A stretch of DNA of 60,406 bases from contig JBDRED010000009.1 of assembly GCA_043820025.1 (NCBI GenBank), positions 1 through 60,406 on the forward strand, given 5' to 3'. The stretch comes from Elusimicrobiota bacterium. Lineage in GTDB: Bacteria; RUG730; JBDRED01. The notes beneath the pieces were generated by a model, which saw only the letters and a list, made by a program, of their open reading frames with translations, was not told the DNA's origin and ran no database searches. Position 1 is the first letter of the stretch, and every line of letters starts with the position of its first letter. Positions 1 through 33,047 of the stretch are shown piece after piece. A program made the position numbers and the translations under genes.

Positions 1-316
1 TAACCTTCTTTACCTTAGGTTCTTTTACCTTCTTTACTTTAGGAGCTTTTGGTTCCTTAACCTTCTTTACCTTAGGTTCTTTTACCTTCTTTACTTTAGG
101 AGCTTTCGGTTCCTTAACCTTCTTTACCTTAGGTTCTTTTACCTTCTTTACTTTAGGAGCTTTTGGTTCCTTTATCTTCTTTACCTTAGGTTCTTTTACC
201 TTCTTTACTTTAGGCGCTTTTGGTTCCTTAACCTTCTTTACTTTCGGTTCTTTTACTTTCTTTACTTTAAGCGCTTTTGGTTCCTTTATCTTCTTTACCT
301 TAGGTTCTTTTACCTT
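1..316 (-). repeat. 57-bp tandem repeat, about 5.5 copies, encoding the 19-aa unit KEPKAPKVKKVKEPKVKKV
   Basis: Units 2-58, 59-115, 116-172, 173-229, 230-286 and a partial unit 287-316 differ by only a few substitutions when aligned by eye. Confidence 0.9.
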
Positions 317-529
317 TATAGGTTTATCAACAACCTTCTTACTAACTTTTTTTACCTTTACATTCTTTGTTTTGACTTTTTCTGCAACATTTTCTTTATT
401 TGCCTTTGTTGTGTCTCCGAAAACAGTTGTGTCCTCGGAAACAGGCGCAGCTATTAAAATGCCATTTGATACGCAAAATGTTAGAGCTGTGATAAAAATA
501 ATTAAAAGTTTTGGAATTTTATTTTTCAT
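1..529 (-). CDS. Secreted Lys/Pro-rich KEPK-repeat protein, N-terminal part only (gene continues past the left edge)
   Basis: Absent from the ORF track because no stop lies in the window. ATG at 529-527 has GGTGG just upstream. My translation is MKNKIPKLLIIFITALTFCVSNGILIAAPVSEDTTVFGDTTKANKEN... (signal-peptide-like), then at least 5 units of KEPKAPKVKKVKEPKVKKV running to base 1. Confidence 0.75.
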   Translation of the reverse strand, partial: MKNKIPKLLIIFITALTFCVSNGILIAAPVSEDTTVFGDTTKANKENVAEKVKTKNVKVKKVSKKVVDKPIKVKEPKVKKIKEPKALKVKKVKEPKVKKVKEPKAPKVKKVKEPKVKKIKEPKAPKVKKVKEPKVKKVKEPKAPKVKKVKEPKVKKVKEPKAPKVKKVKEPKVKKV

Positions 530-552
530 AAACCACCTATTTTAAAAAGATA

Positions 553-1437
553 CTATTTTACAAATTGTATTTCATCTAAATACAACGTAAATCCGCTTGG
601 GTTATCTTCAGCGCTTGCTGACCATGAAAACCCTCCTATTATATGACTCAAATCCTTGTCTTTTAAATTTATTGTATACTTTTTCCATTTTTTAGTAAGC
701 ATAATAGGGCCAATTGACGCAACTGTTGAGTCCGGATATTTACCCGTAATTCCGCCAACATTAAACTCAGCAATAATTTCATCGCCTTTTTCTCCACGCG
801 CCCAGAACTCAAGTTTCTTAATACCGGTTAAATCAAACCCTTCCTTTTCTACACCCCAATTATTCGCAGGATACTGCCAGTATATTCCTGCCCAGCCTGC
901 GCCTTGGATTTTTTCAGCGCTATAATCAATTTTTACACAAGTTTGCCCTTTGAAAGGCTTAATACGGCATCTTGGTGAATATTTTATATCTCCTGTGTCA
1001 CCCATCCATCCTGAAGGTATAAAATGGTTTTCATCAGAACGAAGTTCTGTAAATACATAAAACTTTTTCATACCCTTTTTATTAGAAGATTTCTTAACCT
1101 TAGGCGCTTTTGGTTCCTTTATCTTCTTTACCTTAGGTTCTTTAATTTTCTTAACTTTAGGAGCTTTTGGTTCTTTTACCTTCTTTATCTTAGGTTCTTT
1201 TACTTTCTTTACTTTAGGTTCTTTTACTTTCTTTACTTTAGGCGCTTTTGGCTTTCTTTCTCTTTTTCCTTTTTTTGTTACTTCTTTTGTAACTGTTTTT
1301 GTTGTAATTGTTTCCATGCTTTCAGTAGTTACGCCTGTGTCTGCCCCTGTTGTACTCTCAACTTTCCCGGGCTGAGCATATAGCCCCGCAACCATACTTA
1401 TTACTAAGATTATTGCTAACATTGTCTTTTTAATCAT
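553..1437 (-). CDS. Secreted protein: signal peptide, Thr-rich linker, KEPK lysine-rich repeats, C-terminal ~170-aa CBM-like beta-sandwich domain
   Basis: 294-aa ORF. N-terminus MIKKTMLAIILVISMVAGLYAQ. Repeat block KVKKVKEPKVKKVKEPKIKKVKEPKAPKVKKIKEPK. C-terminal domain carries IPSGWMGD, GWAGIYWQYPANNWG and FTLYLDEIQF, a pattern typical of galactose-binding-like/CBM folds. The family was not assigned. Confidence 0.8.
   Translation of the reverse strand: MIKKTMLAIILVISMVAGLYAQPGKVESTTGADTGVTTESMETITTKTVTKEVTKKGKRERKPKAPKVKKVKEPKVKKVKEPKIKKVKEPKAPKVKKIKEPKVKKIKEPKAPKVKKSSNKKGMKKFYVFTELRSDENHFIPSGWMGDTGDIKYSPRCRIKPFKGQTCVKIDYSAEKIQGAGWAGIYWQYPANNWGVEKEGFDLTGIKKLEFWARGEKGDEIIAEFNVGGITGKYPDSTVASIGPIMLTKKWKKYTINLKDKDLSHIIGGFSWSASAEDNPSGFTLYLDEIQFVK
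1093..1256 (-). repeat. Degenerate copy of the KEPK coding repeat inside the second gene
   Basis: Same cttctttaccttaggttctttt / ctttaggagcttttggttc building blocks as 1-316, but more diverged. Confidence 0.8.
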
Positions 1438-1463
1438 TTTCTTTCTTCCTCCTTTAATTTTTC

Positions 1464-1943
1464 CTAAAACGGAATATTATAAGCTACCATAAAGGCATCT
1501 TTTTTATTATACATTGCATATTTCTTCTTTTTCCTGCTATTTTCAATTTTTTTGCCGGTTGAATACGCGTCTAACACACCAAACAACCAGACAATCGCAG
1601 TAAAAGCCAAAGAATAATACATGTAATTTGTATAATCAATGTAGTCATCATACAACTCATCGTCTCTCAATCCTTTATTCTCATAATCATTATAAAAAGT
1701 ATCTGATTTAAGCTTAAAATAAAGCGCGCTTGCTAACCCGGCGCCGGCCGCAATCATTAAGATCAAACCCTTATCCTTTTTATCTAAAAAACTTTGCCCC
1801 CACCCGGGTATTATTAATGAACGGACAACTGCGCTAGTTGCTGACTTTTTTAAAAGGTAATAATCTTTTGGCATATCAGCCTGAGCAGCTGCCTGTCCAA
1901 CAATAATCGTCATTACTAAAAAAAATGATATTAGTTTTTTCAT
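1464..1943 (-). CDS. Small membrane protein with PGWGQ motif (signal/anchor plus two further hydrophobic helices)
   Basis: 159-aa ORF. Contains IIPGWGQSFLDKKDKG followed by hydrophobic LILMIAAGAGLASALYF and a later helix SLAFTAIVWLFGVL. 3-nt gap to the upstream gene. Confidence 0.7.
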   Translation of the reverse strand: MKKLISFFLVMTIIVGQAAAQADMPKDYYLLKKSATSAVVRSLIIPGWGQSFLDKKDKGLILMIAAGAGLASALYFKLKSDTFYNDYENKGLRDDELYDDYIDYTNYMYYSLAFTAIVWLFGVLDAYSTGKKIENSRKKKKYAMYNKKDAFMVAYNIPF

Positions 1944-1946
1944 AGT

Positions 1947-2585
1947 TTATACCTTTTTATATTCAATGTTATCGATATATACAGTACCGCCATTCCCTTG
2001 TGAAATACCCGTATAGTTCATAATAATTTTAATTACTTCTTTTATATTTGTTAAACTCGCAACACTTGTGATAGTTATACTAAATTCCTTCCATGTTGAC
2101 GGTAAAAGATCATTGTTTGTAATAACAACCTTATCATTTGAATCCGGGCCCTTTACCTCTAAATTTGTTTTATCTGACAATGATCCTTTAGCATAAAACG
2201 TTATTCTATTATATCCTCCCGGAGACATATCTCTTGCAACAGAGTTATCTATATGAAATCCGCACCATTTTGCTGTTTCCCATTGACCATTTGTGGAGTT
2301 ATACGCTTTTTCTAATTGTCCTGTCCATGAATAACGAATACATTTTTTCCCAACGTATGAATCTGTGCCGGTAAAATTAGTTTCTAATGTTTGATAATTA
2401 TATGTAGTATAATATTCAATATCACCGTCAGTATTTAATTCAGTATCATATACATGCCAAACACCGCTCCAATTATTCAATGCCCTGTCGCTCATGGGAT
2501 CATTAATAATATCTCTGGCGTTCTTGCAGCCGCTTAAAATTGACATTATACATATTATTTGGAAAATAATAAATACTTTCTTCAT
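1947..2585 (-). CDS. Lipoprotein with CBM-like beta-sandwich domain
   Basis: 212 aa. Lipobox ILSGC. The C-terminal GGTVYIDNIEYKKV ending and W/G/Y pattern parallel the C-terminal domain of 553-1437. Confidence 0.75.
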   Translation of the reverse strand: MKKVFIIFQIICIMSILSGCKNARDIINDPMSDRALNNWSGVWHVYDTELNTDGDIEYYTTYNYQTLETNFTGTDSYVGKKCIRYSWTGQLEKAYNSTNGQWETAKWCGFHIDNSVARDMSPGGYNRITFYAKGSLSDKTNLEVKGPDSNDKVVITNNDLLPSTWKEFSITITSVASLTNIKEVIKIIMNYTGISQGNGGTVYIDNIEYKKV

Positions 2586-2592
2586 CTATTGC

Positions 2593-5280
2593 TTACCTCA
2601 TAATTACTATTTCTATACGATTATTTTTCTCTATAGCTTCTTTGTCTCTAACCTTTGTGATTGGCGTCTTTTCCCCAAGCCCTACAGATGTTATGATCGA
2701 AGAATCTATGCCTGCAGACGCCATATAGCCGGCTACAGTCTCTGCTCGGCCTTGCGATAATGAACCATTATATCTCTTGAGGCCTTTCTTATCTGTATAT
2801 CCTTCAATCTTTATCTTAGTTATATTTATTCCTTTCATGAAAGCTACTATATCATTAATAAGCGCATTTCCGCCGTCTTTTATCTCAGCCTTTTTAGGTT
2901 CAAAAATATCTCTTGCCGTAATAGTTAAAATCAATCCCCGGGCATCCTCTCTGATATCTACTCTCTTTTTTAATTTATTTATTGCCTCTTTATCAAATAC
3001 CTTTTGTGTGTTGCGCAGAATAAAATTTACAGGCTTGGATTCAGCCTTATTTCCAAGAACATCCGTAGCTCCAATAACGGCATTGAAATGTCCCTCAGGA
3101 ACTAATTTGTTCGTTGCCTCGTCTATGCCATCCCAGCTAAAGTAATCCGGAACTCTTCCTTTTCTGTATATGCGTGAAATTTCTTTATTTTCCTTATCTC
3201 TAATAGAAATCCACCATTCATCAATACCGGAGTAGTCATAAACATACAAATGGAAATCTATTAAATCATTTATGCCATCATTATTAGGCGTAAACAGCAC
3301 TCCTTTTGCAAGGCTGATCTCGACCTGAGGAGGCGCTTTGTCTCCAATTATCGCTCCGTGCATTCCAATCCTCTCTTCAGGTTCTTTAAAGTGAAGAATC
3401 GAATTAAATTTCCAAGCCCATGAAACAGTTACTTCGTCAAAAGATCCTATATCAACAGTATTAATTTTATTATCATCCTCTCGAACTCCAACATAAGAAA
3501 CGCCTAATTCTCCAAATCCTTTAAGATCTCTCTTAATTGACGCTTTATACAGCTGATTTACAACAATACCAAATTCCCTGTGCCATGATTCCGGGCCCCA
3601 GGTATCACTACCATACCCAAGCTCAAGTTTGTATAATCTGTGCTTTAAGATTAGCTCTAATGATAACATGTTTGTCGTTGGTTTTAAGTCATCTTCATCA
3701 TTGGCGTAACTATAACTTCCTGTAGCAACCGGTGAATTGCCTCCACGCGCTACGAGCGTAAGAGAAGTCAGCGATCCTAAACTTGAGCGTAAAACAAAAT
3801 CAATATAATGTAGTGGAGTATTGAATCCAAAAAGGCCATAAACACTTGAAGGCTCCCAAATAACCTTGCCGTCTGCGTTATAGTACCATGTTCTGTCAGT
3901 TGACGTAGGATAATAGTTCATAGAATATCCTAAAGCGCAGGCAAATGGAGATTCAATCGCATCATTTATATTCCATGCTTCCAGGTTTGCAGGTTCGTAC
4001 TTATAAAAATTTGATTTTGCCGAAGGATCATATGTAATAAAAAGGCCGGTAAGCGTTGCTTCTCTATTATCCATATCAACCCTAAAAGGCGCATCCTCTC
4101 CCCTTGGAACAATATAAGCCGGCCCGGGCTGTAATTCAGTTCCTTCATATAAATATGGATTCGCAGATATTAAAGGCTTTCTCCATGTTGCTTTTAACGA
4201 CATTGATAAATGTCTCGCAACCTTTTTGTCAGCAAAACCTTCTATTTCATTTTTATTACCTGCGACAATACCCAAATGTGAATACGAAAGCCGCAATTTA
4301 TCAACAAAAGAAATTAATTTCTCGTTTGGCTCAACAATAATCTTATATCCAATTCCATCCTTTTCCTCAGTTGTGCCATTTTTAACCTTAAACTTAGAGC
4401 CAAGATCACCTTCTCCATCTTTTACATTGTCAACATAAGTATAAGCCTCATTAAGCCTAAACGGCTGATACATTACACCTAATTCAAGGTTTATCGAATT
4501 AATATAACTGATTTTTGAATTTAACGCGTAAGATTCTCTAAACTCATCATCCCATCCCCAAGGAATTTTTTCCCGTCTTGCGACAAAATAATTATCCAAT
4601 TTATAAAATCTGTAATTATATTTAGCGTATAACGAATCTCTCATTCCCCATATCGGCTCGCCGCCAATCACTACAAGCGACCCGACCGGAAGTCTCATTT
4701 CCGCCTCGCCGGCCTCAGGCGCTGTTCTTCCGCTTATATTTAAATAATTTTCAGTATCAAACTGTTCCGGATAAAATCCAAAAATATCGCCTTCATATTT
4801 CCAATTATAGTGTCCTACTCCTTTAAAATAACGCAGTCTTGTGCTCGTAGAATGATATTCGACATCCGCTTTTGTAAACCTGGCATATTGCCTGTCATCA
4901 TATAAACGTTTATAATCATTTACAGGACGCCATAATGTGTCGAGATACCCGCCAAAAATATTTACGCCAATCATGCCCTTAAAATTATCTGTGTGCTTAA
5001 AAAGAAGGTCTAAAGAAAGTGTGTTGCGGCTCGATTTATTCCAATCACTCTCCAAAGCGCCCTGTGTGAAAAAAAACTTTTTATTTATCCCATCCTGGCT
5101 TGCGCTCCACCCGTCAACAGTTCTATTCATTGTATAATCAACAGTATAGTCGCCTTTAAATTGAAGACTGCCGTTTTCTAAATGCGAATAGGACACAGAC
5201 CAGACATATGTTTGTAAAAATAACATTGCAATGCAAAAATAATAAAAAAATTTAAAATTTATTTTACTTAGTAAAGGCAT
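2593..5280 (-). CDS. Large outer-membrane protein: ~640-aa putative beta-barrel, Ig-like domain, C-terminal OmpA-type peptidoglycan-binding domain
   Basis: 895 aa. C-terminus IEGYTDKKGLKRYNGSLSQGRAETVAGYM...NNRIEIVI is an OmpA_C signature. FTPNNDGINDLIDF resembles the FlgD-Ig / CHU_C-type beta-sandwich motif. The N-terminal region is rich in aromatic residues in an alternating pattern. Confidence 0.8.
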   Translation of the reverse strand: MPLLSKINFKFFYYFCIAMLFLQTYVWSVSYSHLENGSLQFKGDYTVDYTMNRTVDGWSASQDGINKKFFFTQGALESDWNKSSRNTLSLDLLFKHTDNFKGMIGVNIFGGYLDTLWRPVNDYKRLYDDRQYARFTKADVEYHSTSTRLRYFKGVGHYNWKYEGDIFGFYPEQFDTENYLNISGRTAPEAGEAEMRLPVGSLVVIGGEPIWGMRDSLYAKYNYRFYKLDNYFVARREKIPWGWDDEFRESYALNSKISYINSINLELGVMYQPFRLNEAYTYVDNVKDGEGDLGSKFKVKNGTTEEKDGIGYKIIVEPNEKLISFVDKLRLSYSHLGIVAGNKNEIEGFADKKVARHLSMSLKATWRKPLISANPYLYEGTELQPGPAYIVPRGEDAPFRVDMDNREATLTGLFITYDPSAKSNFYKYEPANLEAWNINDAIESPFACALGYSMNYYPTSTDRTWYYNADGKVIWEPSSVYGLFGFNTPLHYIDFVLRSSLGSLTSLTLVARGGNSPVATGSYSYANDEDDLKPTTNMLSLELILKHRLYKLELGYGSDTWGPESWHREFGIVVNQLYKASIKRDLKGFGELGVSYVGVREDDNKINTVDIGSFDEVTVSWAWKFNSILHFKEPEERIGMHGAIIGDKAPPQVEISLAKGVLFTPNNDGINDLIDFHLYVYDYSGIDEWWISIRDKENKEISRIYRKGRVPDYFSWDGIDEATNKLVPEGHFNAVIGATDVLGNKAESKPVNFILRNTQKVFDKEAINKLKKRVDIREDARGLILTITARDIFEPKKAEIKDGGNALINDIVAFMKGINITKIKIEGYTDKKGLKRYNGSLSQGRAETVAGYMASAGIDSSIITSVGLGEKTPITKVRDKEAIEKNNRIEIVIMR

Positions 5281-5359
5281 TTGCGCTCCAAATTGAATTT
5301 GATTTAAAGGTATTTTAATCTAGCATATTTAGAAAAATATGCCAAGATTATTTTTATAA

Positions 5360-7288
5360 TTATTTTTTAAGGTTCCATAAATCCTTATATGTATAGTAAG
5401 CTTCTCTTAAATTACGCTGAAAAGGGCTATTCTCCCCATTCCCCTGGCCAACAATACCAAACCACTCTTCATGACCCCATCCATCAGGAAACGGCATTGC
5501 GTATTGCGCCTGTCTTTGCTGTTCAAAAGGAGAATCTCCCTGTGAATCTTTCCACCATTCGTCAAGCCACTCAAAAATTATTCCGCCAAGACAAATCCCC
5601 TCTCCCGGCTGGCCCATTGTGTTATATTCAATATCCTTCCAATTACCCTTGTGGTAATTTGCTTGTTCGATTTCATTTACGCCCTGACGCTCATGATACG
5701 CATCACAACCATACTCAGTAATAATAACAGGTTTTTCAATCTTCTTCTTTATTTTTTTCCATAATGGGCCAAAGCTGTCTCCGCCAAGATAAGCGTTTAC
5801 GCCAAATATATCAATTTCCGGGCTGTATTTATGATAATAATCCAAAAGATCCAGACTGTAATTTCCGACAACTACAGGATGATTTGGGTCAAGTTTATGA
5901 ATCATGGCCGCAACCTCATTTACAAATTCAGTGTATTCCTTAGGAAATTTACTCGCATTTGTAGCTGTGGCATTCACTCCGCCTACATCCGGAAGGTCAT
6001 TCTCGTTGCCAATCGCCCACATAAGAACATAAGGTTCATCCTTGTGATCCATAACCATTCTTTTAACGCTGTCCTTCATCATCTTGCGCTGTAAAGGATC
6101 TCGGTAATCTGTTGAAGACGAATCTGATCCAATACCATACGCGCCTATAAAATCTCCTAATATAACTCGTATACCATACGTCTTATATAAATCTCTTAAT
6201 ATGTCTTTATCAATTCCTCCCTGCTCATAACCCTTCTTTGAAAACATATGGTACATTCTTATGGTATTTACGCCCATATCCTTTAATAATTGAAAATCGC
6301 CGACTATCGGCTCGTTGCTGTCCCGTTTATTATTACTATTACTATCAACCCATGAGTCATAAGCAGCGTCAGATTTTCCATTCTTATTAGTATCCAGTTT
6401 CATCCACTTTGTTTCCCTGCCCGGTTCATCCACCTTTGTACCAATCTTGGTCGGAGCGTAAGTGATGCCTTTTACAATATATGGTTTACCTTTTACCAAT
6501 AACTGCCATTGCCCATTATCATACTGAACTACCTGAACAGCGCCTTCTCCTCTCTGTTTAATAATATTCAGCGCCCCGGCTTTTACCTTTTGCGGCACAC
6601 GCGATTCATTACTCACAAATCTGCCGGGATTAACAACAACAACATCATTTTGAAGATCTGTGTCATCCTTATTTTCTATTTCAACTGAAGCGTCTACGAG
6701 CGTAAAACCCAGATCATCAGCGTATTCCCTGCATAACACATTAATTCTGTCAATCGCTACAGGCGCAACATACCAGACAAAACTTCCGTCAATACCCCAG
6801 CATGCCGTCTGAGGAAAATTAATAACAATAGAATAGTACGCCTTTATAGCCTGCACTATACTTCCGCCGTTTTTTAACGCCTCCGCAGTAAAGAACTGCC
6901 TTGTGCCGGGATCATGGTCTAAATAATTATCATTTACAACATTTGCCGTTGCCCAAGCGAAAAAATCAACCTCAGGATTTCCGGTATTAACATTCTTCCA
7001 AATATCATCTTCAAATGCTTGTTGTTTTAAAAGTTTTTTATAGACAGGGTCTAAAGACGCTTCGCGGTTTGGGTACACGCCCTCGCCTGCAGCGCGGGAT
7101 AAACCCTCTTTATCCGTGATTTTGTACTTGTAATAAGCTGTCCCTATATTCTTAAATTTCCCGTACTTTTCGTAATCAATAATTTTATCGCCTGTATTTT
7201 TTATACGTATTTCCGACCCTAAAACAACCATCTGTAAAAAGCAGATGATTAGCATACTCAGAATTAAACTAACTGTTATTTTTTTCAT
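5360..7288 (-). CDS. Secreted clan GH-A (TIM-barrel) glycoside hydrolase-like protein, paralogue A
   Basis: 642 aa with signal peptide. WAIGNEN (acid/base NE) and VIITEYGCDAY (nucleophile E, GH2 GusA-like ITEYG) lie at the expected spacing. GVNTIRMYH is the first barrel strand. The ~230-aa N-terminal domain is unassigned. Confidence 0.8.
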   Translation of the reverse strand: MKKITVSLILSMLIICFLQMVVLGSEIRIKNTGDKIIDYEKYGKFKNIGTAYYKYKITDKEGLSRAAGEGVYPNREASLDPVYKKLLKQQAFEDDIWKNVNTGNPEVDFFAWATANVVNDNYLDHDPGTRQFFTAEALKNGGSIVQAIKAYYSIVINFPQTACWGIDGSFVWYVAPVAIDRINVLCREYADDLGFTLVDASVEIENKDDTDLQNDVVVVNPGRFVSNESRVPQKVKAGALNIIKQRGEGAVQVVQYDNGQWQLLVKGKPYIVKGITYAPTKIGTKVDEPGRETKWMKLDTNKNGKSDAAYDSWVDSNSNNKRDSNEPIVGDFQLLKDMGVNTIRMYHMFSKKGYEQGGIDKDILRDLYKTYGIRVILGDFIGAYGIGSDSSSTDYRDPLQRKMMKDSVKRMVMDHKDEPYVLMWAIGNENDLPDVGGVNATATNASKFPKEYTEFVNEVAAMIHKLDPNHPVVVGNYSLDLLDYYHKYSPEIDIFGVNAYLGGDSFGPLWKKIKKKIEKPVIITEYGCDAYHERQGVNEIEQANYHKGNWKDIEYNTMGQPGEGICLGGIIFEWLDEWWKDSQGDSPFEQQRQAQYAMPFPDGWGHEEWFGIVGQGNGENSPFQRNLREAYYTYKDLWNLKK

Positions 7289-7346
7289 CTTTCTTTCTCC
7301 TTTTAATATCCATCGATATGTTATAGAAAAAATCTATACCGGATTC

Positions 7347-9254
7347 CTATTGAACATTAGTCTCTTGATCATTCCATACGCTCTTGTAATAATAATAGCT
7401 TTCTCTAATCTGTCTCAAAAACGGACTATTCTTTCCTTTTCCCTGGCTGCAAATACCCAGCCATTCTTCATACATCCACCCATCGGGAAAAGGCCCTGCC
7501 CACTGTCCGGTGCGATCATGATAGTAAGGATAAAAAGCCTTCCACCATCCATCCACCCACTCAAAAACCACTCCTCCCAACGCAATACCTTTCCCTTTGC
7601 CGGCCATATTATTTATAATATCTTCCCAGGCAAATTGGTGATACAGCCTCTGGTAGTGTTCCGCTTCCTTTTGGCTCTTACCCCAATAAAAAGCCGGGCA
7701 TCCATATTCTGTAACTAAAACAGGCTTATTAATTTCACCTTGCAGATCTTCCCAAAATGTTGAGCCAAATCCTTCCATGCCCCTATACGCATTACAGCCA
7801 AAAATATCAATATTGTCGCTATTCTTCGCAAAAACATCTAGAAACAGGACATCCCCGTTACAAATAGCTATAGGATGGTTCGGATCTATTTCCTTTATTT
7901 TTTTCGCAACCTTATTAACAAATTTGTAAAACTGTTCAGGCTGTTCCCCGGCCATACACCCGGATCCCGTAGACTGCTTCTTTATTCCCACTGTGCCATA
8001 ATTATTCTCATTACCAAGAATCCACATAAGAACATACGGCTCATCCTTATGTTCACGAACCATCTTTAAAACGCTTGCCATCATGTTCTTACAATGTTTC
8101 GGATTAGTATAATCTGTGCCTTGAAACCAATCTGCTCCTGACCCTGTTGCATACATTCCCAGAAAATCACCGAGCATTACCATTATTCCGTATTTATTAT
8201 ATAATTCGCGCAGAAGTTTTTTATTCGACGCATGATGATAAACACGCAATGTGTTTACGCCCATATCATGCATAAGCTTAAAATCTCCTACAACTTGCTC
8301 GTTATTGTCTTGAACATCATTCTGATTTAAATCTACCCAGGTATCAAAAGGACAATCAACACGCCCATTTTTATTTATATCGCTCTGCATCCAATCTTTA
8401 AATGTTCCTTTATCCGGGCTCTGTCCAATAACACTCGGGAGATAACCCATCCCTCTTATTTGCCAAAGCCTATCGTTTATAAAAAGCTGCCAATGCTTAT
8501 TATCGTACTGAACCAGTTTTATATCCCCAAATATATTTTCTTTAACCTTATGAAGAGCGTTGATATTAATTTTGGCAGGTGTTACTTGTTTATCAACATT
8601 AACCAGTTTGCCGGGATTAACTATAAAAATATCATTACTGATATCATTATCAAACCTGTTCTTAATTTTTATGAAAGCGCCTTCAATAGCTATCTTTTCT
8701 TCAGGATGATACGCGCACAAAAACTTTATTTTATCAAGAGCAACCTGCCCAACATACCATGGATTATGCCAATATGTTCTTCCTATTGTTCTTGGAAACA
8801 TTACAACAACCGTATAATAAGCTTTTATTGCCTGTTTAATGTGCCCCGCTTTTTCTAAGGCTGATGCCACATAAAACTGCCTCAATCCCGGATGCTCCTC
8901 GTATGAACTGGCCCATTTAAAGAATGCAAGCTCCTTATTATCCACATTAACAAAATCCCACCTATTACCATCTAAAAGGCCTGCTTCCTTGTCCTTAGTA
9001 AAACGCGGGTTCTTATCAAGGCTCCATGTGTTAGGCGCTATTCCTTCTCCCTGCGCTCTGCCTAAACCTTCGTAATCTGAAATTATATATCTATAATTTT
9101 CCGTATCAACTCCGTCAAAACTACCGTACTTGCCGTAATCTACTATATCCTCTGTACCCCAATCACTAATAAAGGTATCAGCCGAATAGGAAAGCGACCC
9201 GGCTAATATTAATGCTGAGGCTAATAAATAAATCCGTTTTGATTTTGCAATCAT
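7347..9254 (-). CDS. Secreted clan GH-A glycoside hydrolase-like protein, paralogue B
   Basis: 635 aa with signal peptide. WILGNEN and VLVTEYGCPAFY. Shares HKDEPYVLMW, DPNHP, IDIFG.NAY and PFPDGW..EEW.GI with paralogue A. The start overlaps the permease stop by 4 nt. Confidence 0.8.
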   Translation of the reverse strand: MIAKSKRIYLLASALILAGSLSYSADTFISDWGTEDIVDYGKYGSFDGVDTENYRYIISDYEGLGRAQGEGIAPNTWSLDKNPRFTKDKEAGLLDGNRWDFVNVDNKELAFFKWASSYEEHPGLRQFYVASALEKAGHIKQAIKAYYTVVVMFPRTIGRTYWHNPWYVGQVALDKIKFLCAYHPEEKIAIEGAFIKIKNRFDNDISNDIFIVNPGKLVNVDKQVTPAKININALHKVKENIFGDIKLVQYDNKHWQLFINDRLWQIRGMGYLPSVIGQSPDKGTFKDWMQSDINKNGRVDCPFDTWVDLNQNDVQDNNEQVVGDFKLMHDMGVNTLRVYHHASNKKLLRELYNKYGIMVMLGDFLGMYATGSGADWFQGTDYTNPKHCKNMMASVLKMVREHKDEPYVLMWILGNENNYGTVGIKKQSTGSGCMAGEQPEQFYKFVNKVAKKIKEIDPNHPIAICNGDVLFLDVFAKNSDNIDIFGCNAYRGMEGFGSTFWEDLQGEINKPVLVTEYGCPAFYWGKSQKEAEHYQRLYHQFAWEDIINNMAGKGKGIALGGVVFEWVDGWWKAFYPYYHDRTGQWAGPFPDGWMYEEWLGICSQGKGKNSPFLRQIRESYYYYKSVWNDQETNVQ

Positions 9255-10111
9255 TCTTTAACTGCTCCTGCCATAATTCCTTTAATAATATATTTCTGCA
9301 TTATTAAGTAAACAGTTATGATAGGCACAATGGTGATTGTAATACCTGCCATTAACAAAGGGTATTCTGTGAGATGGCTCCCCTGAAACACCATAAGGCC
9401 TCTTTGAAGAGGCATAAGAGTCTTACTAGAAAGAACTAACATAGCTAACAAGTATTCATTCCATACTCCGAGCGCTACAAATATAACAAGCACTGCCAAA
9501 GCCTGCTTAGCTAAAGGCAGGGCAACGTGCCAGTATATACCAAACTTGCCGCAGCCATCAATACGCGCCGCGTCCTCAAGCTCTTTTGGCATCTTGTCAA
9601 AAAATGTTTTTAAAAGAAAAATACCTAATGCAAGCCCTCCGTTTATCTGCGGCAGTACATATCCTATTCTCGTATTAACAAGATTGAGTTTAGTTAACAA
9701 CACATACAATGCGATAAATGAACCCGGAATTGGAATCATCATTGTAGCCATAAATACCATAAAAAACAGCCTTCGTCCCGGAAACTCAAGCCTTGAAAAC
9801 GCGTAAGCTGCAAGCGAAGAAATAAGCACAACCCCTAAAACAACCACTATTGTATATAAAACGCTGTTAAAAAAATATGTCCCGAAATTTGCTTTTGTCC
9901 ACGCAATTTTAAAATTTATCCATTGAGGGTTGCCGGGAAACAAACTCATATCGGAAAAAACCGTTCTTTGAGTTTTTAAAGCTGAGGAAAACATCCAAAT
10001 AAGCGGAAATATACATGTGATAGAAACAAGCCCGAGAATTGTATGCGTTATGAAAGCCGACACGAATCTTTTTATTTGGTATTCATAATGAGGCCTTTGT
10101 CTAATAGTCAT
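9251..10111 (-). CDS. Carbohydrate ABC transporter permease (MalG-like)
   Basis: 286 aa, multi-TM. EAA loop LEDAARIDGCGKFGIYWHVALPLAKQA. Confidence 0.9.
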   Translation of the reverse strand: MTIRQRPHYEYQIKRFVSAFITHTILGLVSITCIFPLIWMFSSALKTQRTVFSDMSLFPGNPQWINFKIAWTKANFGTYFFNSVLYTIVVVLGVVLISSLAAYAFSRLEFPGRRLFFMVFMATMMIPIPGSFIALYVLLTKLNLVNTRIGYVLPQINGGLALGIFLLKTFFDKMPKELEDAARIDGCGKFGIYWHVALPLAKQALAVLVIFVALGVWNEYLLAMLVLSSKTLMPLQRGLMVFQGSHLTEYPLLMAGITITIVPIITVYLIMQKYIIKGIMAGAVKE

Positions 10112-10113
10112 AA

Positions 10114-10998
10114 TTATACCTTACGTCTTTGGGAGATTTTCATCTGAATAACAGATAAAGATAATAATACAACACCGAACACAATGCTCATAGCGCATGC
10201 ATAACCAAACCTTGATGTGCCTGTCATTGCCGCAAGTATGCGTGTTATTGGAACCTCAGTATGATACCCCGGTCCTCCATGAGTAGTAGAAACAATTAGA
10301 TCGTATATCTGCATAGTGCCGAGGATTGTCAGGATAGAAACCAAGATAAAAACAGGAATCATTAAAGGCACTGTAATATTCTTAAACACCTGCCACGCAT
10401 TAGCTCCGTCAACCTTTGATGCTTCATATAATTCGCGGGGTATTCCTTGAAGCCCTGCAAGCAGTATAATAAATCCCCATCCAAAACCTTTCCACATATG
10501 TATAACTGCAACAGATGTCAACGCTGTTTTTGGATCAGCCAGCCACGCGCGCGCTAAATCGCCTAAGCCCATAGCATTTAACGCATAATTTAAAAGTCCA
10601 TAATTTCCGTCATAAATCCAATTCCAAATTAAACCAACTACGATTCCTGATAATACCGGCGGCAAATAAAATATAACTCTATACGCTTTCGCTCCTCTTA
10701 TTTCCCTATCGCATGCTAACGCGAGAATCAACGCTAAAGAATTTTGAAGTATTAGAGCTAAAAATGTTATATAACCGGCATTTAACATTGATGTCCAGTA
10801 AACCTTATTGTTTCTAAAAATATCTATAAAATGTTCAAGGCCGACATACTTCATAGACAAAGATATTCCATCCCATTGAAATACGCTAAGCTGGAACACC
10901 TTAATAAAAGGATATAGGCTAAAGACCATGAATAATGAGATAGCAGGCAGAACAAATAAATAATTTTCAAGAACCTGTTTTCTTTTGCTGTTAATCAT
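10114..10998 (-). CDS. Carbohydrate ABC transporter permease (MalF-like)
   Basis: 294 aa, multi-TM. EAA loop LYEASKVDGANAWQVFKNITVPLM. Confidence 0.9.
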   Translation of the reverse strand: MINSKRKQVLENYLFVLPAISLFMVFSLYPFIKVFQLSVFQWDGISLSMKYVGLEHFIDIFRNNKVYWTSMLNAGYITFLALILQNSLALILALACDREIRGAKAYRVIFYLPPVLSGIVVGLIWNWIYDGNYGLLNYALNAMGLGDLARAWLADPKTALTSVAVIHMWKGFGWGFIILLAGLQGIPRELYEASKVDGANAWQVFKNITVPLMIPVFILVSILTILGTMQIYDLIVSTTHGGPGYHTEVPITRILAAMTGTSRFGYACAMSIVFGVVLLSLSVIQMKISQRRKV

Positions 10999-11031
10999 CC
11001 CAATATTCCTTTTATAACAAAATATTTTGTC

Positions 11032-12330
11032 TTATTGCGATTTAATTCTTTTTAGTTCTGTTTCTTTAAGCGACTGCACCTCTTTCGCAATCTGTTCAGC
11101 TGTTTTTTCTCCAATAATTATTGATTGAATGCCTTTGTCAAAAGCTTCTATAACACTTGGGAATTCAGCGTAAGGAAGAAAGCTTGGATGCGTTGTTTTA
11201 TCCATATTATCCGCGAATTGCGCGAGTATTGGAGAAATACTCTTTAAACTATCCTTATTTACAGGAAGGTTTCTGGTAGCTTCAGCTAAGAATACCTGCT
11301 GATCTTTATCTGTAAGCCATTTTAAAAATTTTATTGCTTCTTCTTTATTCTTTGAATTGGCGTTTACCATAAATGACGAGCCTGCGCCGCCCCAGATCAC
11401 CATAGGATACTGGTCAGAAACGCGCGGCGGAAATAAAACTTCATAATCTAAGTCCGGATTCATGCCATGATAAACATTTACGCACCATGTCCCGTTAAAC
11501 GCCATTGCCGCCCTCTCATTAGCAAACATTTGCTCTGCTGTTTTATTAACCATTGTGACTATTCCGGTCGCAAGCACATGGTTATTTACCATTTCTTTAA
11601 ATAATGAAAGAACCTTAATCCAATCAGGATCAGTATAAGGAACATCTCCTTTTATCGTTGCAACAACCTTTTCTTTACCCATAATATTAAAAGCGTAGTT
11701 TGAAGCAAGGCAGTCTATCATCCATATCTCGCCCCATCCGCTGACAAGTCCCTGCATGCCGGCCTCGTGCAGTTTTTTGCCTGCTTTCATAAATTCATCC
11801 CATGTCTTTGGCGGATTTTCCGGGTCAAGGCCTGCTTTTCTAAACATCTTTTTATTGAAAAGCATTTGAATGTTAGTTACATCAATAGGGACGCCATATA
11901 CGCCCGGTTTTATACCAAACTGATTATCAGGCAAAAACTCATTAACAGCCAAAGCCTTTAAAAACATTCTGTTTTTCCATAAACCATTGCTCGCGTCCAT
12001 ATAAGGAGTAAGGTTTTCAACATGACCGGCCTTAATAAAGCTGGCAAAATCCCTAGCCTCGCTTAAGATACCATAAATATCCGGCAATGTGTTTGTTTGA
12101 GCCGCAGCTTTAACTTTAGAGGAGTATGCTTCTGAAGGCGCGTATAATTCAAATGTAACGTCTATTCCAAACTGTTGTTTATATCTGTTTGTTAATTCTA
12201 TAAATGCGTCATCCCTATCTGTCATCCAATGCCACACAGTAATTCCTTTCTTGTCCTTTTTAACGCTGCAGCCGCTAATCATTCCCAAAATAAAAACGCT
12301 AAGAATAAAAAGCGATATACCTTTTTTCAT
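11032..12330 (-). CDS. ABC transporter extracellular solute-binding lipoprotein (sugar type)
   Basis: 432 aa. Lipobox MISGCS. Length and composition are typical of family-1 SBPs. First gene of the permease operon. Confidence 0.85.
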   Translation of the reverse strand: MKKGISLFILSVFILGMISGCSVKKDKKGITVWHWMTDRDDAFIELTNRYKQQFGIDVTFELYAPSEAYSSKVKAAAQTNTLPDIYGILSEARDFASFIKAGHVENLTPYMDASNGLWKNRMFLKALAVNEFLPDNQFGIKPGVYGVPIDVTNIQMLFNKKMFRKAGLDPENPPKTWDEFMKAGKKLHEAGMQGLVSGWGEIWMIDCLASNYAFNIMGKEKVVATIKGDVPYTDPDWIKVLSLFKEMVNNHVLATGIVTMVNKTAEQMFANERAAMAFNGTWCVNVYHGMNPDLDYEVLFPPRVSDQYPMVIWGGAGSSFMVNANSKNKEEAIKFLKWLTDKDQQVFLAEATRNLPVNKDSLKSISPILAQFADNMDKTTHPSFLPYAEFPSVIEAFDKGIQSIIIGEKTAEQIAKEVQSLKETELKRIKSQ

Positions 12331-12443
12331 TATTTTTCTCCTTTGGTTATATCTAAAATATTCACAGATTCAATATCTGTAAGAAACAAATTAAATGTTC
12401 TTTTCTTATTAAATTGGCAGTCTTTTTTTCGGATGGCTTTTTG

Positions 12444-12473
12444 ATTATACTACAACTATATAATATATGTCAA
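12444..12473 (-). promoter_or_regulatory. Sigma70-type promoter candidate for the ABC/GH operon
   Basis: The minus strand reads TTGACA (12473-12468), an 18-nt spacer, then TATAAT (12449-12444), about 110 nt upstream of the SBP ATG. Confidence 0.5.
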
Positions 12474-12538: not shown

Positions 12539-14716
12539 CTATTTATTAATAATTTTAATTTTGTCAAAACTAATACTGATATTTAGATCCTTATTACGCA
12601 CCGCAATATTTAATTCCTTTGGCCAAACCATTCTTCCATTCACTGAATGCCAGTCGCTATATAATATTTCCACTTTGTTATTACCGGTTTTATTTACAAA
12701 ATCTTGTTGTAAGATATATCCGTCTTTTGATATCACCAAATCAACATTTTCAAATGAAAGCCTATAACAGTCTTTATCTTCAATCAGCTCTTTGTCGTCT
12801 AAAATAACCTCCGGAATGATTTGAAAATTATTAATCTCTGAAAGCGCCGGGATATTATCTTCTAAATTATATTTTTTACTGCTCGCTACAGAATAAAACG
12901 AAACCTCATCGTGAATCAATATATAACCGGCAGGAAGGCCCGGGATATTATTTGCGTCAATACGAATATAATCCGGAAATAAATAGCGCAGACTGCCTTT
13001 AAAAACTAATTTTCTCTTATACTTAATTTTAATATTTACGCCGGCTATTAAAAGATGTTTTTGCGCTGAGCGTTGAAGCGTATTAATACGATTTTTTATC
13101 ATTTCATCAATCGGGATATCTGCGAGCATTCTCGAACATTCGTTAAGTTTTAATTCATAATCATGATTCGTGTCGTCTAAAAAACGCGCGCTGTCATACG
13201 CAAAAAAGGCTTTTTCATAATTACCCAGTTTATTATACGCCTCTCCCATATGGAAATAAATAACAGGATCAATTTGATCCTTACCTGCCTCTTCCAAAAG
13301 ATTTAACGCTTCTTTGTATTCGCCCTTTTTAAAATAGAGCCATCCCAGACTATCCTTATAAGCGCTGCTTTCAGGAAAGATTTTTAACGCTTTTTTTATT
13401 AATATCTCAGCCTCGCCAAGGTTCTCGCCTTTTTCAATCATTGAATATCCAATATAATTCGCGGCCTGAGCATTATCAGGATCATATTTCAAAAGAGTTC
13501 TTAGAGTCATTACAGCGTTATCCGTCTTATCCATACTATCGTATGTCATTCCTAAAGAATAAAGCGCGCTTGTATACCCGGTTTTGAGCGACACAGCTTC
13601 TTGAAAATACCTGACAGCTTTTTTATTATTCCCATTGTCGCTATAACCAAGCCCTATAAAGTAATATAGATCCGGATCGCTCGGATATCTTTTTAACGCC
13701 TTTTTTAAAATATTTACAGCTTTATCATTCTTGTTTTTTTTAGAATACAAATAAGCGATACGCAAATAATTTTCAACGGCGTAGTTATTGTATTCCATTA
13801 TGTCAAACAGATATTCTATCGCCTTGTCCCAATCTTTAATTTCCTCCGCGCGTTTTATCAGCATGAGATATGCGTATAGCGTCTGCGTGATGAGCATATC
13901 GTCTATTTTATTTGCTGATTTTATTTTATCTATGACGCGTAGAAAATATTCTTCGCCTTCCAGGCTCCACTCATCCTGCCACGCTAGAGTGCCGAGTTTA
14001 TTGAGGAGCATCACTACATTAATATCCGAAGATTCGTGTATAAGAGCCTCTGAGTATGCTTCTTCTGCTAATTGTTTTTCATTGGTTCTCTCATACAACA
14101 CGCCTAACCGCCACCAAATAGCGCTGTTTTCTTTATCCTTAATAATTATCTCTTTATACAAATCCTTAGCTTTCTCATACTCCTTCTCGCGCTCAAGCAC
14201 ATTAGCAAGAAGCGCTTTTACGTCATTATTACCCGGCGCTTTCTCTAAATATTTTTCATAGTATATCCCGGCTTTCTTTTGATCGCCCCGGCGCTCATAA
14301 AATAGTCCAAGATAAAAATACACGCCCGGCTGGTCAGGATCTATCTCTTTTGCTTTTTCAGCATATTCAATCGCCTTATCAAACTCCGACAAAGAAGCTT
14401 TAGTGTGCGCTAAAATGAAATATGTTTCATAATCAGGCTCGCCGTACTCAACAATCCATAATCCTTTCTCCTCAGCCTCTTCAAACTTACCGCTTCTCCA
14501 TAATGCAATCAATGCATCCTTCTCAACAATATTGCTAACAGGGCCGCTGCTGTCAATCTTTGCGTACATCTCTAACGCCTTATCATAATCACCCTCAAAC
14601 TGATACATAAGCCCTTGAATATATGTTTCATAACTTTCAGACTCGCTTCTGCTCTGAGCTAAAAGAAACGATAAGGGCATAAACATTAATAATAAGGTTA
14701 TAACTATTTTCTTCAT
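12539..14716 (-). CDS. Secreted TPR-repeat protein with a ~200-aa non-TPR C-terminal beta-rich domain
   Basis: Many 34-aa repeats of the A..Y...L..-P type. I place the start at ATG 14716 (MKKIVITLLLMF..., GAGGA upstream) rather than the track's TTG at 14731. Confidence 0.8.
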   Translation of the reverse strand: MKKIVITLLLMFMPLSFLLAQSRSESESYETYIQGLMYQFEGDYDKALEMYAKIDSSGPVSNIVEKDALIALWRSGKFEEAEEKGLWIVEYGEPDYETYFILAHTKASLSEFDKAIEYAEKAKEIDPDQPGVYFYLGLFYERRGDQKKAGIYYEKYLEKAPGNNDVKALLANVLEREKEYEKAKDLYKEIIIKDKENSAIWWRLGVLYERTNEKQLAEEAYSEALIHESSDINVVMLLNKLGTLAWQDEWSLEGEEYFLRVIDKIKSANKIDDMLITQTLYAYLMLIKRAEEIKDWDKAIEYLFDIMEYNNYAVENYLRIAYLYSKKNKNDKAVNILKKALKRYPSDPDLYYFIGLGYSDNGNNKKAVRYFQEAVSLKTGYTSALYSLGMTYDSMDKTDNAVMTLRTLLKYDPDNAQAANYIGYSMIEKGENLGEAEILIKKALKIFPESSAYKDSLGWLYFKKGEYKEALNLLEEAGKDQIDPVIYFHMGEAYNKLGNYEKAFFAYDSARFLDDTNHDYELKLNECSRMLADIPIDEMIKNRINTLQRSAQKHLLIAGVNIKIKYKRKLVFKGSLRYLFPDYIRIDANNIPGLPAGYILIHDEVSFYSVASSKKYNLEDNIPALSEINNFQIIPEVILDDKELIEDKDCYRLSFENVDLVISKDGYILQQDFVNKTGNNKVEILYSDWHSVNGRMVWPKELNIAVRNKDLNISISFDKIKIINK

Positions 14717-14779
14717 AATTTCCTCAAACAAACTGTTTATATTAAAGTAATATTAAAAAAACGCTTCCCTGCTTTATAA

Positions 14780-31643: not shown

Positions 31644-31717
31644 TAGCGGCGCAGGGATTTGAACCCCGGACCTGCGGATTATGATTCCGTCGCTCTAACC
31701 AGCTGAGCTACGCCGCC
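31644..31717 (-). tRNA. tRNA with CAU anticodon (elongator Met, or Ile2 that requires lysidine)
   Basis: Reverse complement GGCGGCGTAGCTCAGCTGGTTAGAGCGACGGAATCATAATCCGCAGGTCCGGGGTTCAAATCCCTGCGCCGCTA folds as a cloverleaf. The anticodon stem lacks the three G-C pairs of initiator tRNA. No encoded CCA. Confidence 0.85.
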
Positions 31718-31782
31718 AATAATTGAAATGATTTATATGTATACCAATTTAATGCTTGTTTTTCAAGTGAAAAGTGAACTGA

Positions 31783-31838
31783 GGGACAGACCCCAAAATT
31801 CGGAAAATTTTAAAATACCTGATTTTGGGGGCTGTTCC
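31783..31838 (-). terminator. Long imperfect hairpin downstream of the TlpA-like gene (probable terminator)
   Basis: Arms 31783-31799 and 31822-31838 pair at 16 of 17 positions (one G-U included) with a 22-nt loop. Begins 6 nt after the stop at 31844. The downstream tail is only moderately T-rich. Confidence 0.5.
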
Positions 31839-31843
31839 TCCGG

Positions 31844-32392
31844 TTATAGAAGCTCAAGTATTTGTTTTTCAAAAACCTCTTTTGGCGCATATCCAATATG
31901 TTTACCTCTAATATTTCCTTCCCTGTCAATAATAAATGTTGTTGGTATGCCCCTAATTCCGCCATACGCAATTGTAACAGGCTCATCACCTAAAACAAGC
32001 GTGTAATTTATTCCCATCTCCTCTGCAAATGGAGCAATAACTCCGGGCCCTTCCATATCAAGCGTAACTCCGACTATTTCAAGTCCCTGTTCTTTGTATT
32101 TATTTTGTAGTTCAACAAATCCGGGTATTTCCATTCTGCATGGCGGGCACCATGTTGCCCAAAAATCCAGTATTATTACCTTTCCTTTTAAAGACGATAA
32201 AGTAAAATCTCCTTCTTCAAGAGCCAATGGCAATGTGAAATCGGAAGCGTCGCCCCAATCAGACGCTGTCAGAGTATTTTTTTCACTGACAGTTTTTAAA
32301 GGCTTTTCGTTTTTTGCAGCCTCACTGCCGCAGCTGACTAAAAACACGCTAAATATAGTTACGAGTATTGCTGTTTTTGTTATTTGTATCAT
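31844..32392 (-). CDS. TlpA/ResA-like periplasmic thiol:disulfide oxidoreductase lipoprotein
   Basis: Lipobox LVSCGS. WATWCPPC active site. Thioredoxin fold length. Confidence 0.88.
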   Translation of the reverse strand: MIQITKTAILVTIFSVFLVSCGSEAAKNEKPLKTVSEKNTLTASDWGDASDFTLPLALEEGDFTLSSLKGKVIILDFWATWCPPCRMEIPGFVELQNKYKEQGLEIVGVTLDMEGPGVIAPFAEEMGINYTLVLGDEPVTIAYGGIRGIPTTFIIDREGNIRGKHIGYAPKEVFEKQILELL

Positions 32393-32555: not shown

Positions 32556-32590
32556 TAACGCAATACGCTGTTCGCGCAACGCATTACGAA

Positions 32591-33027: not shown

Positions 33028-33047
33028 AAAATAGGCGTTTCTATTAT

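Follow-up and report, generated by a model that had tools for sequence, protein, structure and literature searches.

Ten co-directional genes at one end of contig JBDRED010000009.1 (assembly GCA_043820025.1, an Elusimicrobiota bacterium; the 60,406 nucleotides analysed are called the window here) appear, on balance, to form a catabolic operon with which a diderm bacterium acquires beta-glucan. All ten lie on the minus strand, at the positions given in an earlier note that had been made from the sequence alone and that proposed a glycan capture-and-import locus. The hydrolase family, the fold of the carbohydrate-binding module (CBM)-like domains, the gene order and the absences recorded there largely bear that proposal out, whereas its surface binders are not supported.

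The route that we propose is as follows. A glucan chain would enter the periplasm through, or at, a large peptidoglycan-anchored outer-membrane barrel, which would work physically with the GH158-like retaining glucanase encoded just upstream. The two secreted hydrolase paralogues would cut the chain, and CBM30/CBM11-like members, one of them a lipoprotein and at least one other carried on a polycationic KEPK linker, would retain the polymer in the periplasm. A lipoprotein solute-binding protein (SBP) would pass oligosaccharides to a CUT1-type permease pair with its ATPase encoded elsewhere. Phosphorolysis and phosphorylation in the cytoplasm, by glycoside hydrolase (GH) family 94 and ROK proteins, would follow; these are part of the Omnitrophota cassette and are not within the window. 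The barrel as conduit, the periplasm as the site of binding and hydrolysis, and beta-glucan as the substrate are the parts of this scheme that we infer.

Two secreted hydrolases resemble GH158 glucanases

The first hydrolase gene (7347..9254, minus strand) encodes a secreted clan GH-A protein of 635 amino acids (aa). The second (5360..7288, minus strand), directly upstream of the barrel gene, encodes a paralogue of 642 aa. Both carry Sec signals, and they are 43% identical. Pfam detects only a GH2-type TIM barrel in either protein (Glyco_hydro_2_C at E 5e-14 in the former, E 9e-11 in the latter). The best match of the 635-aa protein in the PDB, searched as a single sequence, is the GH158 structure 9oro (E 8.6e-9). 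The 642-aa protein matches 9oro at E 1.9e-14 and BuGH158 (6pal) at E 1.5e-9, with the best GH2 at 5e-5, and a profile of 24 sequences from the family favours GH158 (E 1.3e-15 for 9oro and 3.4e-14) over the best GH2 (1.9e-11). N415-E416 and E516 of the 635-aa protein, its putative acid/base and nucleophile, are invariant in 24 homologues and align with the GNES and TEFG motifs of 9oro. In BuGH158, a retaining endo-beta-1,3-glucanase from a Bacteroides laminarin polysaccharide utilisation locus (PUL), these motifs contain N136/E137 and E220 (PMC7157763). The TIM barrel, Asn-Glu acid/base and Glu nucleophile of a clan GH-A retaining glycosidase are all present.

The similarity to GH158 spans just ~150-200 residues, and for that reason the specificity of the window enzymes may differ. 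They stop right after the TIM barrel, without the C-terminal immunoglobulin (Ig)-like domain of the BuGH158 architecture, and have a strongly conserved N-terminal domain of ~300 aa whose fold was not recognised. Relatives, by contrast, have shorter paralogues that possess Ig domains of the FlgD_ig type. Because the similarity is short and the N-terminal domain replaces the C-terminal Ig domain, the window proteins are, on their sequences, better described as GH158-like clan GH-A enzymes than as GH158 members, and they probably represent a new subfamily or family of CAZy-type GHs.

Two other identities were rejected. Membership among the GH2 beta-galactosidases or glucuronidases fails because NCBIfam scores reach only ~27-29 bits where the cut-offs are 544-1284, and because neither the sugar-binding nor the Ig domain of GH2 is present. 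The GH72 transglycosylases, which remodel cell walls, are matched at 17-19 bits against a Pfam cut-off of 25.9. The ranking of GH158 (E 1e-14 to 1e-15) ahead of GH2 (1e-5 to 1e-11), with GH72 below threshold, agrees with the nutritional role given to the hydrolases in the earlier note rather than with a family devoted to the cell wall or to exopolysaccharide. The hydrolase family is large: more than 2145 clusters of homologues align over the full length at 50-65% identity, and the family occurs in at least 548 species-level genomes, mostly of Omnitrophota, with some of Endomicrobiia and other Elusimicrobiota.

The gene order is kept in relatives

Two sets of loci were compared. The hydrolase-anchored set comprises 80 species-level genomes, mainly Omnitrophota, to which the window proteins were mapped by tblastn; the barrel-anchored set comprises 33 loci, and a metagenome scan was made with an 8-sequence barrel alignment. 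The commonest hydrolase-anchored order is SBP, permease, permease, GH, one or two CBM-like genes and a second GH, with or without ROK and GH94. Upstream of the GH gene, the importer occurs in 50 of 62 loci with enough flank; downstream of it, a CBM-like gene occurs in 57 of 64 and a second GH gene in 46 of 59. GH94 or ROK is found at most 10 kb away in 27 of 35. The co-located GH94 is cellobiose-phosphorylase-like (E 1.7e-152 to 3qde); a laminaribiose phosphorylase, matched at 3.4e-43, is disfavoured.

In the barrel-anchored loci, a GH of the same hydrolase family lies directly upstream of the barrel gene (within 2 kb) in 21 of 25, a lipoprotein gene downstream of it in 19 of 20 with enough flank and a CBM-like gene downstream in all 20. 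The importer is within the locus in 9 of 15. The order GH, barrel, lipoprotein, CBM-like recurs in Elusimicrobiota-type contigs. Conservation of the arrangement, which the earlier note had left to be checked, thus holds in both sets, and because it is kept in dozens of independent genomes it lies beyond chance. One relative (L006) adds a GH81 endo-beta-1,3-glucanase and a CBM_11 protein. Between the SBP and permease genes of the same locus lies a 118-aa gene of the Avd/23S_rRNA_IVP type (4454-4810); Avd-type proteins we take to be accessory proteins of diversity-generating retroelements.

The Omnitrophota cassettes raise the question of predation. Genes for an SBP, permeases and glycosyl hydrolases have been mentioned in passing as lying downstream of giant genes in Omnitrophota (10.1101/2023.11.21.568195; 10.64898/2026.06.07.730766). 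They have the same order as in the window, and their products are 63% (SBP), 58-64% (permeases) and 51% (GH) identical to those of the window, but they have been described only as flanking genes annotated 'GH2' and read in both reports as a means of prey-wall degradation. On that view the cassette would degrade and import the cell-wall glycans of a prey or host cell, and in one Omnitrophota locus (L001) it directly follows a gene of 45,376 aa. We give this explanation very little credence for the window. Neither a giant gene nor any pilus or secretion gene occurs in the locus or in the 40 open reading frames (ORFs) scanned with Pfam, a set that consists of the locus genes and most of the window's long ORFs. 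The nearest enzyme families have storage- or plant-type beta-glucans rather than murein as substrates, the Myxococcota context described below is that of a plain sugar-utilisation locus, and we know of no predators among the Elusimicrobiota. In small-genome Omnitrophota, the core of hydrolases, importer and CBM-like proteins may be the main route of sugar acquisition, although it has so far been read only as an accessory of predation.

Two further observations concern Omnitrophota. The giant gene of L001/L015 (CP070837.1, 1-5990 of the locus), annotated as 45,376 aa, ends ~300 nucleotides (nt) upstream of the SBP-permease-permease-GH cassette. After the second GH gene, L001 (14942-18064) and ~20 other Omnitrophota loci encode a protein of ~920-1040 aa with N-terminal TPR repeats and a weak C-terminal match to MtrB_PioB. 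As a counterpart of the window barrel this protein was rejected (hhalign probability 0.6%); it might be the outer-membrane component of those cassettes.

The hydrolase and the barrel are fused in Myxococcota

A distant group of 35 loci from the metagenome scan (L117-L151) ties the hydrolase to the barrel. In 26 of them GH and barrel are encoded as one ORF of ~1100-1240 aa, in the order signal peptide, Pro-rich linker, GH and C-terminal barrel. The remaining nine were not scored as fused; most of their barrel matches fall in ORFs whose start coincides with a contig end. In the fusions, the GH part shares 31% identity with the hydrolase of the window (E 2e-42). The barrel part is found by BLAST at E 4e-11 and by the family hidden Markov model at E 1e-23 to 1e-28 over positions ~125-575 for most fusions, and at 1e-14 to 1e-17 for three that are cut short. 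The carriers are marine Myxococcota and all fusions are annotated 'hypothetical'; the one cluster examined (the L119 protein, 8174-11470) is a 'hypothetical protein' in Myxococcales/Polyangiales metagenome-assembled genomes. On the 736-kb contig of L119 the fusion lies between genes for an MFS sugar transporter, a GH16 enzyme, an HTH-ROK regulator, a GH1 beta-glucosidase and a sugar SBP, a context that by its predicted gene products is plainly one of beta-glucan catabolism. Since both parts are joined in one polypeptide, a Rosetta-stone arrangement, the functional link is strong, and hydrolase and barrel are predicted to act together.

The fusion also bears on whether the operon is a single system at all. 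A sugar importer with its GHs and a separate set of outer-membrane, peptidoglycan-tethering and envelope proteins could be unrelated modules that merely adjoin, as L004, which has the barrel module alone, and the Omnitrophota, which have the importer-GH cassette alone, might suggest. With GH and barrel as one polypeptide in 26 loci, that explanation is essentially excluded; that a GH gene immediately precedes the barrel gene in 21 of 25 loci speaks against it as well, and CBM-like genes accompany both modules.

A plug-less barrel with a peptidoglycan anchor

The barrel gene (2593..5280, minus strand) encodes an outer-membrane protein of 895 aa. Structure models of this protein and of the CBM-like domain were built from representative sequences of the protein library. 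The AlphaFold2 model of the 895-aa protein (pLDDT 82.5) comprises a signal peptide, a barrel at ~38-630, an Ig-like domain at ~650-755 and an OmpA_C domain at ~770-895. The modelled barrel has ~26-28 strands, a count read from secondary structure rather than from coordinates, and no plug, as the strands begin directly behind the signal peptide. Pfam places OmpA_C (PF00691) at residues 793-886 (E 3e-16), and Foldseek aligns it at a template modelling (TM) score of ~0.8 with PA0833, YfiB and OmpA C-domains, so that the C-terminal peptidoglycan-binding domain of the OmpA family is present. Model and Pfam together support the earlier description of a putative beta-barrel with Ig-like and OmpA_C domains.

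The protein fits none of the barrel families that we considered. Against the barrels of TonB-dependent transporters it scores TM 0.27-0.42 with a root-mean-square deviation above 12 A, and this identity was rejected because there is no Plug or TonB_dep_Rec match in Pfam and no plug in the model. A classical OmpA, with an 8-strand N-terminal barrel, was rejected on the extent (~38-630) and strand number of the barrel. A type Va autotransporter was rejected because PF03797 matches neither the 895-aa protein nor the fusion, and the barrel region is ~500-600 aa. Eighteen other clusters of barrel homologues were found; those with a named source are from Endomicrobiales or Elusimicrobia. On the model, the 895-aa protein represents a new barrel family that is predicted to be tethered to peptidoglycan. 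Of the idea that the barrel is an outer-membrane channel, the link to the hydrolase has gained from the Myxococcota fusion, while its role in import stays our inference.

A CBM-like family that probably binds in the periplasm

The 294-aa KEPK-repeat protein (553..1437, minus strand) has a Sec signal, a Lys/Pro-rich KEPK linker (nt 1090-1236) and a C-terminal domain of 169 aa (nt 556-1062) that no Pfam family covers. A model of this domain from a 30-sequence alignment reaches pLDDT 98. Its closest folds by Foldseek are CBM30 (1wmx, TM 0.65, E 6e-6) and CBM11 (1v0a, TM 0.59), followed by CBM8, CBM29, CBM4 and CBM22, and the modelled domain has the beta-jelly-roll of CBM30/CBM11. Beta-glycans are the ligands of all the top folds (CBM30, CBM11 and CBM4/22/29). 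Sequence does not place the domain in CBM30, as the Pfam CBM30 model matches 1 of 11 members at E 0.11 and the family profile matches CBM30 in the PDB at E 0.31; these sub-threshold matches agree with a CBM30-type fold.

The lipoprotein encoded just downstream of the barrel (1947..2585, minus strand; 212 aa, lipobox LSG-C) has no Pfam match and is a divergent member of the same family (hhalign probability 99.1%, E 1.7e-18). A word-index homology search with it returned only the protein itself; relatives were recovered from neighbouring loci by BLAST and hhalign. The CBM-like ends that the earlier note had seen in both proteins are therefore upheld, as members of one new family with a confidently modelled CBM30/CBM11-type jelly roll. 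By sequence this is a separate, new CBM-like family, for which glycan binding is predicted. With 2490 representative clusters in a library of 1.84 billion proteins, often in tandem and in up to 8 copies, it points to a new CBM family worth characterising.

A second KEPK-repeat ORF (1..529, minus strand) begins with a signal peptide, contains at least 5.5 copies of a 19-aa repeat and is cut by the window edge before its C-terminus. Its tandem array (nt 1-316) has a 57-nt period and a 19-aa unit, KEPKAPKVKKVKEPKVKKV, in 5.5 copies with 93% matches; the linker of the preceding KEPK gene (nt 1090-1236) is a shorter array of the KEPKAPKVKKVKEPKVKKV-type unit. The polycationic, proline-containing repeat would, we suppose, act as a spacer or envelope tether.

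The CBM-like proteins had first been taken as surface binders, which is not supported. Those of the window have only Sec or lipoprotein signals, and relatives fuse the domain to OmpA_C: L085 (19550-20929) and L048 (8153-9487) each encode a single protein composed of a signal peptide, CBM-like, Ig-like and OmpA_C domains (OmpA_C at E 3.6e-26 and 1.7e-21, respectively) and no barrel. Because it is fused to this peptidoglycan anchor, the CBM-like domain should be periplasmic in L085 and L048, and the window binders are probably periplasmic too. From the OmpA_C-anchored domains of relatives and the KEPK linker we therefore derive a model of periplasmic capture. The most economical account is capture and hydrolysis in the periplasm behind a dedicated barrel, of the 'selfish' type, and then SBP-dependent import. 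As a separate observation, genomes that encode the CBM-like-Ig-OmpA_C protein have a short barrel protein without Ig and OmpA_C domains.

The opposite topology would have the barrel export the hydrolases, and perhaps the CBM-like proteins as well, or hold them at the cell surface in the manner of an autotransporter; hydrolysis would be extracellular and only oligosaccharides would diffuse in, which is the classical scheme of PULs whose enzymes sit on the surface. The fusion has such a passenger-like order, from signal peptide and Pro-rich linker through GH to C-terminal barrel. Surface binders would also fit the 500-fold enrichment of an Elusimicrobia population on cellulose particles in the absence of recognised cellulases (PMC7031533). 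We nevertheless think surface display unlikely. A barrel of ~590 residues with a periplasmic C-terminal OmpA_C is unlike the 12-strand autotransporters, and no Autotransporter match was found in Pfam. Moreover, CBM-like domains fused to OmpA_C must be periplasmic, and no known surface-sorting signal was seen on the GHs or CBM proteins.

The importer and the direction of transport

The first gene of the operon (11032..12330, minus strand) encodes a CUT1-type solute-binding lipoprotein of 432 aa (SBP_bac_8 at E 7.5e-38, SBP_bac_1 at E 1.4e-34, lipobox ISG-C), which shares 63-69% identity with the SBPs encoded in the corresponding place of Omnitrophota and Elusimicrobiota loci. Two ABC permease genes follow, one UgpA/MalF-like (10114..10998, minus strand; 294 aa; BPD_transp_1 at E 2.3e-16, UgpA at E 1e-30, MalF at E 2e-24) and one UgpE/MalG-like (9251..10111, minus strand; 286 aa; BPD_transp_1 at E 3.6e-16, UgpE at E 7e-38, MalG at E 3e-29); the stop of the latter shares 4 nt with the start of the hydrolase gene that follows. 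The SBP and the two MalF/MalG-type permeases are those of a CUT1 importer. The cognate MalK/MsiK-type ATPase was not found, as the six-frame translation of the whole 60-kb window contains no LSGGQ signature of ABC ATPases. An ATPase shared in trans is common among CUT1 importers, so its absence leaves membership possible. Among the 40 scanned ORFs, Pfam also shows no TonB-dependent receptor (Plug, TonB_dep_Rec), SusD, ABC ATPase or DNA-binding regulator. Scan and signature search thus agree with the earlier statement that SusC/SusD, an ATPase and a regulator are not in view.

An importer next to a barrel and a periplasmic hydrolase could also serve the cell's own glycans. In this alternative, barrel, hydrolase and binders would handle an endogenous envelope polysaccharide or exopolysaccharide, and the importer would recycle the fragments. 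Synthase-dependent systems (BcsC/BcsZ, PgaA/PgaB, AlgE/AlgL) do couple an outer-membrane porin genetically to a periplasmic glycosidase, and AlgE is among the Foldseek matches of the barrel. Many GH homologues carry TPR repeats, PilZ proteins are encoded downstream in relatives, and the GH is highly conserved and near-ubiquitous in Omnitrophota, with weak GH72 matches. We regard this alternative as improbable. The locus has neither a glycosyltransferase synthase nor a TPR-bearing porin: no glycosyltransferase domain was found in it, no glycosyltransferase or synthase gene occurs in it or in the related loci inspected, and the barrel lacks a TPR domain. The SBP-dependent importer, GH94, ROK, GH1, GH16, GH81 and MFS sugar transporter of the window locus or its relatives are catabolic hallmarks, and the GH72 matches fall below the Pfam threshold. 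Because of the SBP-dependent importer and the catabolic partners, an inward direction of transport is implied.

Weighing the beta-glucan reading

Several observations weigh against a beta-glucan acquisition system of the kind that we favour. The linkage of the glucan is ambiguous: GH158, GH81 and GH16 point to beta-1,3, while beta-1,4 or mixed linkage is suggested by the cellobiose-phosphorylase-like GH94 and by the CBM30/CBM11-like fold, CBM30 and CBM11 being binders of beta-1,4 or mixed-linkage glucans. The short span of the GH158 similarity has been mentioned, and a niche nutrient locus would not usually have a hydrolase as conserved as this one, at ~50% identity across phyla. As to a channel role, Foldseek relates the barrel only to generic large barrels (TonB-dependent receptors, AlgE, chitoporin, ushers) at TM 0.2-0.4, and the Omnitrophota cassettes have no detectable barrel homologue. 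The L006 locus also holds a TonB-dependent receptor and a FadL-like channel, and in L004 the barrel module adjoins type IV pilus genes, while neither a GH nor an importer is encoded within 10 kb of it. None of the RNA-seq runs searched contains the locus.

A bolder version of the beta-glucan reading, which we put forward tentatively and hold to be possible rather than probable, is a TonB-independent outer-membrane glycan translocon. The chain would thread through the plug-less, anchored barrel, and a hydrolase docked at, or fused to, its periplasmic mouth would capture and cut it. Peptidoglycan-tethered CBM-like proteins might then stop back-diffusion, so that direction would come from hydrolysis and binding and not from TonB; this second part is equally tentative. 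If true, it would provide a mechanism for 'selfish' uptake in phyla without SusC/SusD, such as Elusimicrobiota, Myxococcota and, with a different outer-membrane part, Omnitrophota.

Relation to known systems

Bacteroidota PULs such as the beta(1,3)-glucan locus of B. uniformis with its GH158 (PMC7157763) share with the window locus co-directional glycan binders, GH158-type endo-glucanases, an outer-membrane barrel and onward transport, and their 'selfish' logic of periplasmic processing is plausible here too. The window locus differs in having no SusC-type TonB-dependent transporter, SusD, hybrid two-component system regulator or surface-lipoprotein GH; adjacent susC-like and susD-like genes, which define a Sus-like PUL, were absent from the locus proteins and from the 30 other window ORFs scanned. 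Its barrel is plug-less, of no known family and OmpA_C-bearing, its binders belong to an unclassified CBM-like family and are probably periplasmic, and uptake across the inner membrane would be by an ABC importer.

CUT1 oligosaccharide-importer loci of Gram-positives, Thermotogae and others combine an SBP for cellodextrins or laminari-oligosaccharides with MalFG-like permeases and GH94 or ROK. The window locus shares with these the SBP lipoprotein, the two permeases, the ATPase in trans and the secreted GHs, and the Omnitrophota versions share the phosphorylase and kinase partners as well. It differs in belonging to a diderm and in adding an outer-membrane barrel, a CBM-like lipoprotein, a DUF5683 protein and peptidoglycan- or polycation-tethered binding proteins. 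Functionally the locus is a polysaccharide utilisation locus, one that fails the SusC/SusD test and, because it has an outer-membrane module of its own, exceeds an ABC locus of the Gram-positive type.

Other likenesses are partial. The synthase-dependent exopolysaccharide pairs differ, beyond their direction, in the synthase that the window locus lacks and in the TPR repeats that its barrel lacks. LptD/LptE also has a large barrel encoded beside a small lipoprotein, but the function here would be unrelated to lipopolysaccharide. The fusion variants share with type Va autotransporters an N-terminal enzyme and a C-terminal barrel, although the window barrel is far larger. Pfam and Foldseek gave no sequence or specific structural similarity of the window barrel to LptD/LptE or autotransporters.

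The earlier note had suggested that the system might be undescribed. This is only partly true, as the importer-GH core had already been mentioned near Omnitrophota giant genes; neither report was found to mention the barrel module, the CBM-like family or the GH-barrel fusion. In the literature searched we found no description of the GH158 affinity, the CBM-like family, the barrel family, the pairing or fusion of barrel and hydrolase, or peptidoglycan-tethered binders. How polysaccharides pass the outer membrane in diderms outside the Bacteroidota, including in selfish uptake, is an explicitly acknowledged gap (PMC12323593). With a barrel family genetically locked to a glucanase, the locus is a concrete candidate for such entry. 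It may also account for the attachment of Elusimicrobia to cellulose particles in spite of their lack of recognisable cellulases (PMC7031533), a finding that we take as a lead on the substrate and not as evidence.

Promoter, remaining genes and the window

A sigma-70-type promoter, TTGACA-18-TATAAT (12444..12473, minus strand), precedes the operon; it matches the consensus at 12 of 12 positions and is the sole perfect match in 15 kb. The leader of ~113 nt, read directly from the sequence, leads to an AAGGAG ribosome-binding site ahead of the ATG at 12330, and an Rfam scan of it returned no element. Intergenic spacing runs from the 4-nt overlap of permease 2 and hydrolase to 79 nt between hydrolase and barrel. 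Coordinates, domain matches and the perfect promoter thus confirm the promoter, gene content and tight spacing as first described. Directly upstream of the promoter lies a gene for a 730-aa TPR protein (12539-14731) whose C-terminal ~200 aa match no family; it was rejected as a member of the system, having no homologue beside any related locus.

The left edge of the window falls within the 57-nt tandem repeat, and relatives have 4 or 5 further co-directional genes downstream; for these two reasons the operon appears to be truncated at the contig end. The repeat array probably caused the contig break. The carrier is, judging by best hits, probably a diderm of the Elusimicrobiota class Endomicrobiia, and locus DNA was detected in biofilm and groundwater metagenomes.

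The remainder of the window is housekeeping (GlmS, GlmM, FtsH, Lon, ClpB, GltX and others). ORFs of 448, 463, 393 and 252 aa (56305-57651, 57664-59055, 59043-60224 and 52399-53157) have no Pfam match at E <= 1e-4. A five-tRNA cluster (31644-33119) and two isolated tRNAs (41707-41786 and 46812-46902) are the only Rfam families in the window. All credible genes of the 60 kb (1-60406) are on the minus strand, an unusually strict co-orientation, and the GC skew is about -0.15 to -0.34 throughout.

Between the lipoprotein and the 294-aa KEPK protein, the operon encodes a DUF5683 membrane protein of 159 aa (1464..1943, minus strand; PF18935 at E 3.6e-6) with a signal peptide, two hydrophobic helices and a PGWGQ motif. 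Homologues occur in the same module of L004-L006, L085 and at least 7 metagenome loci. In relatives, a PilZ-domain protein of ~660 aa and a DUF4416 protein are repeatedly encoded a few genes past the module, in a region that lies beyond the window edge (the P0123 contig; L005, 17468-19480), and this recurrence hints at control by cyclic di-GMP.

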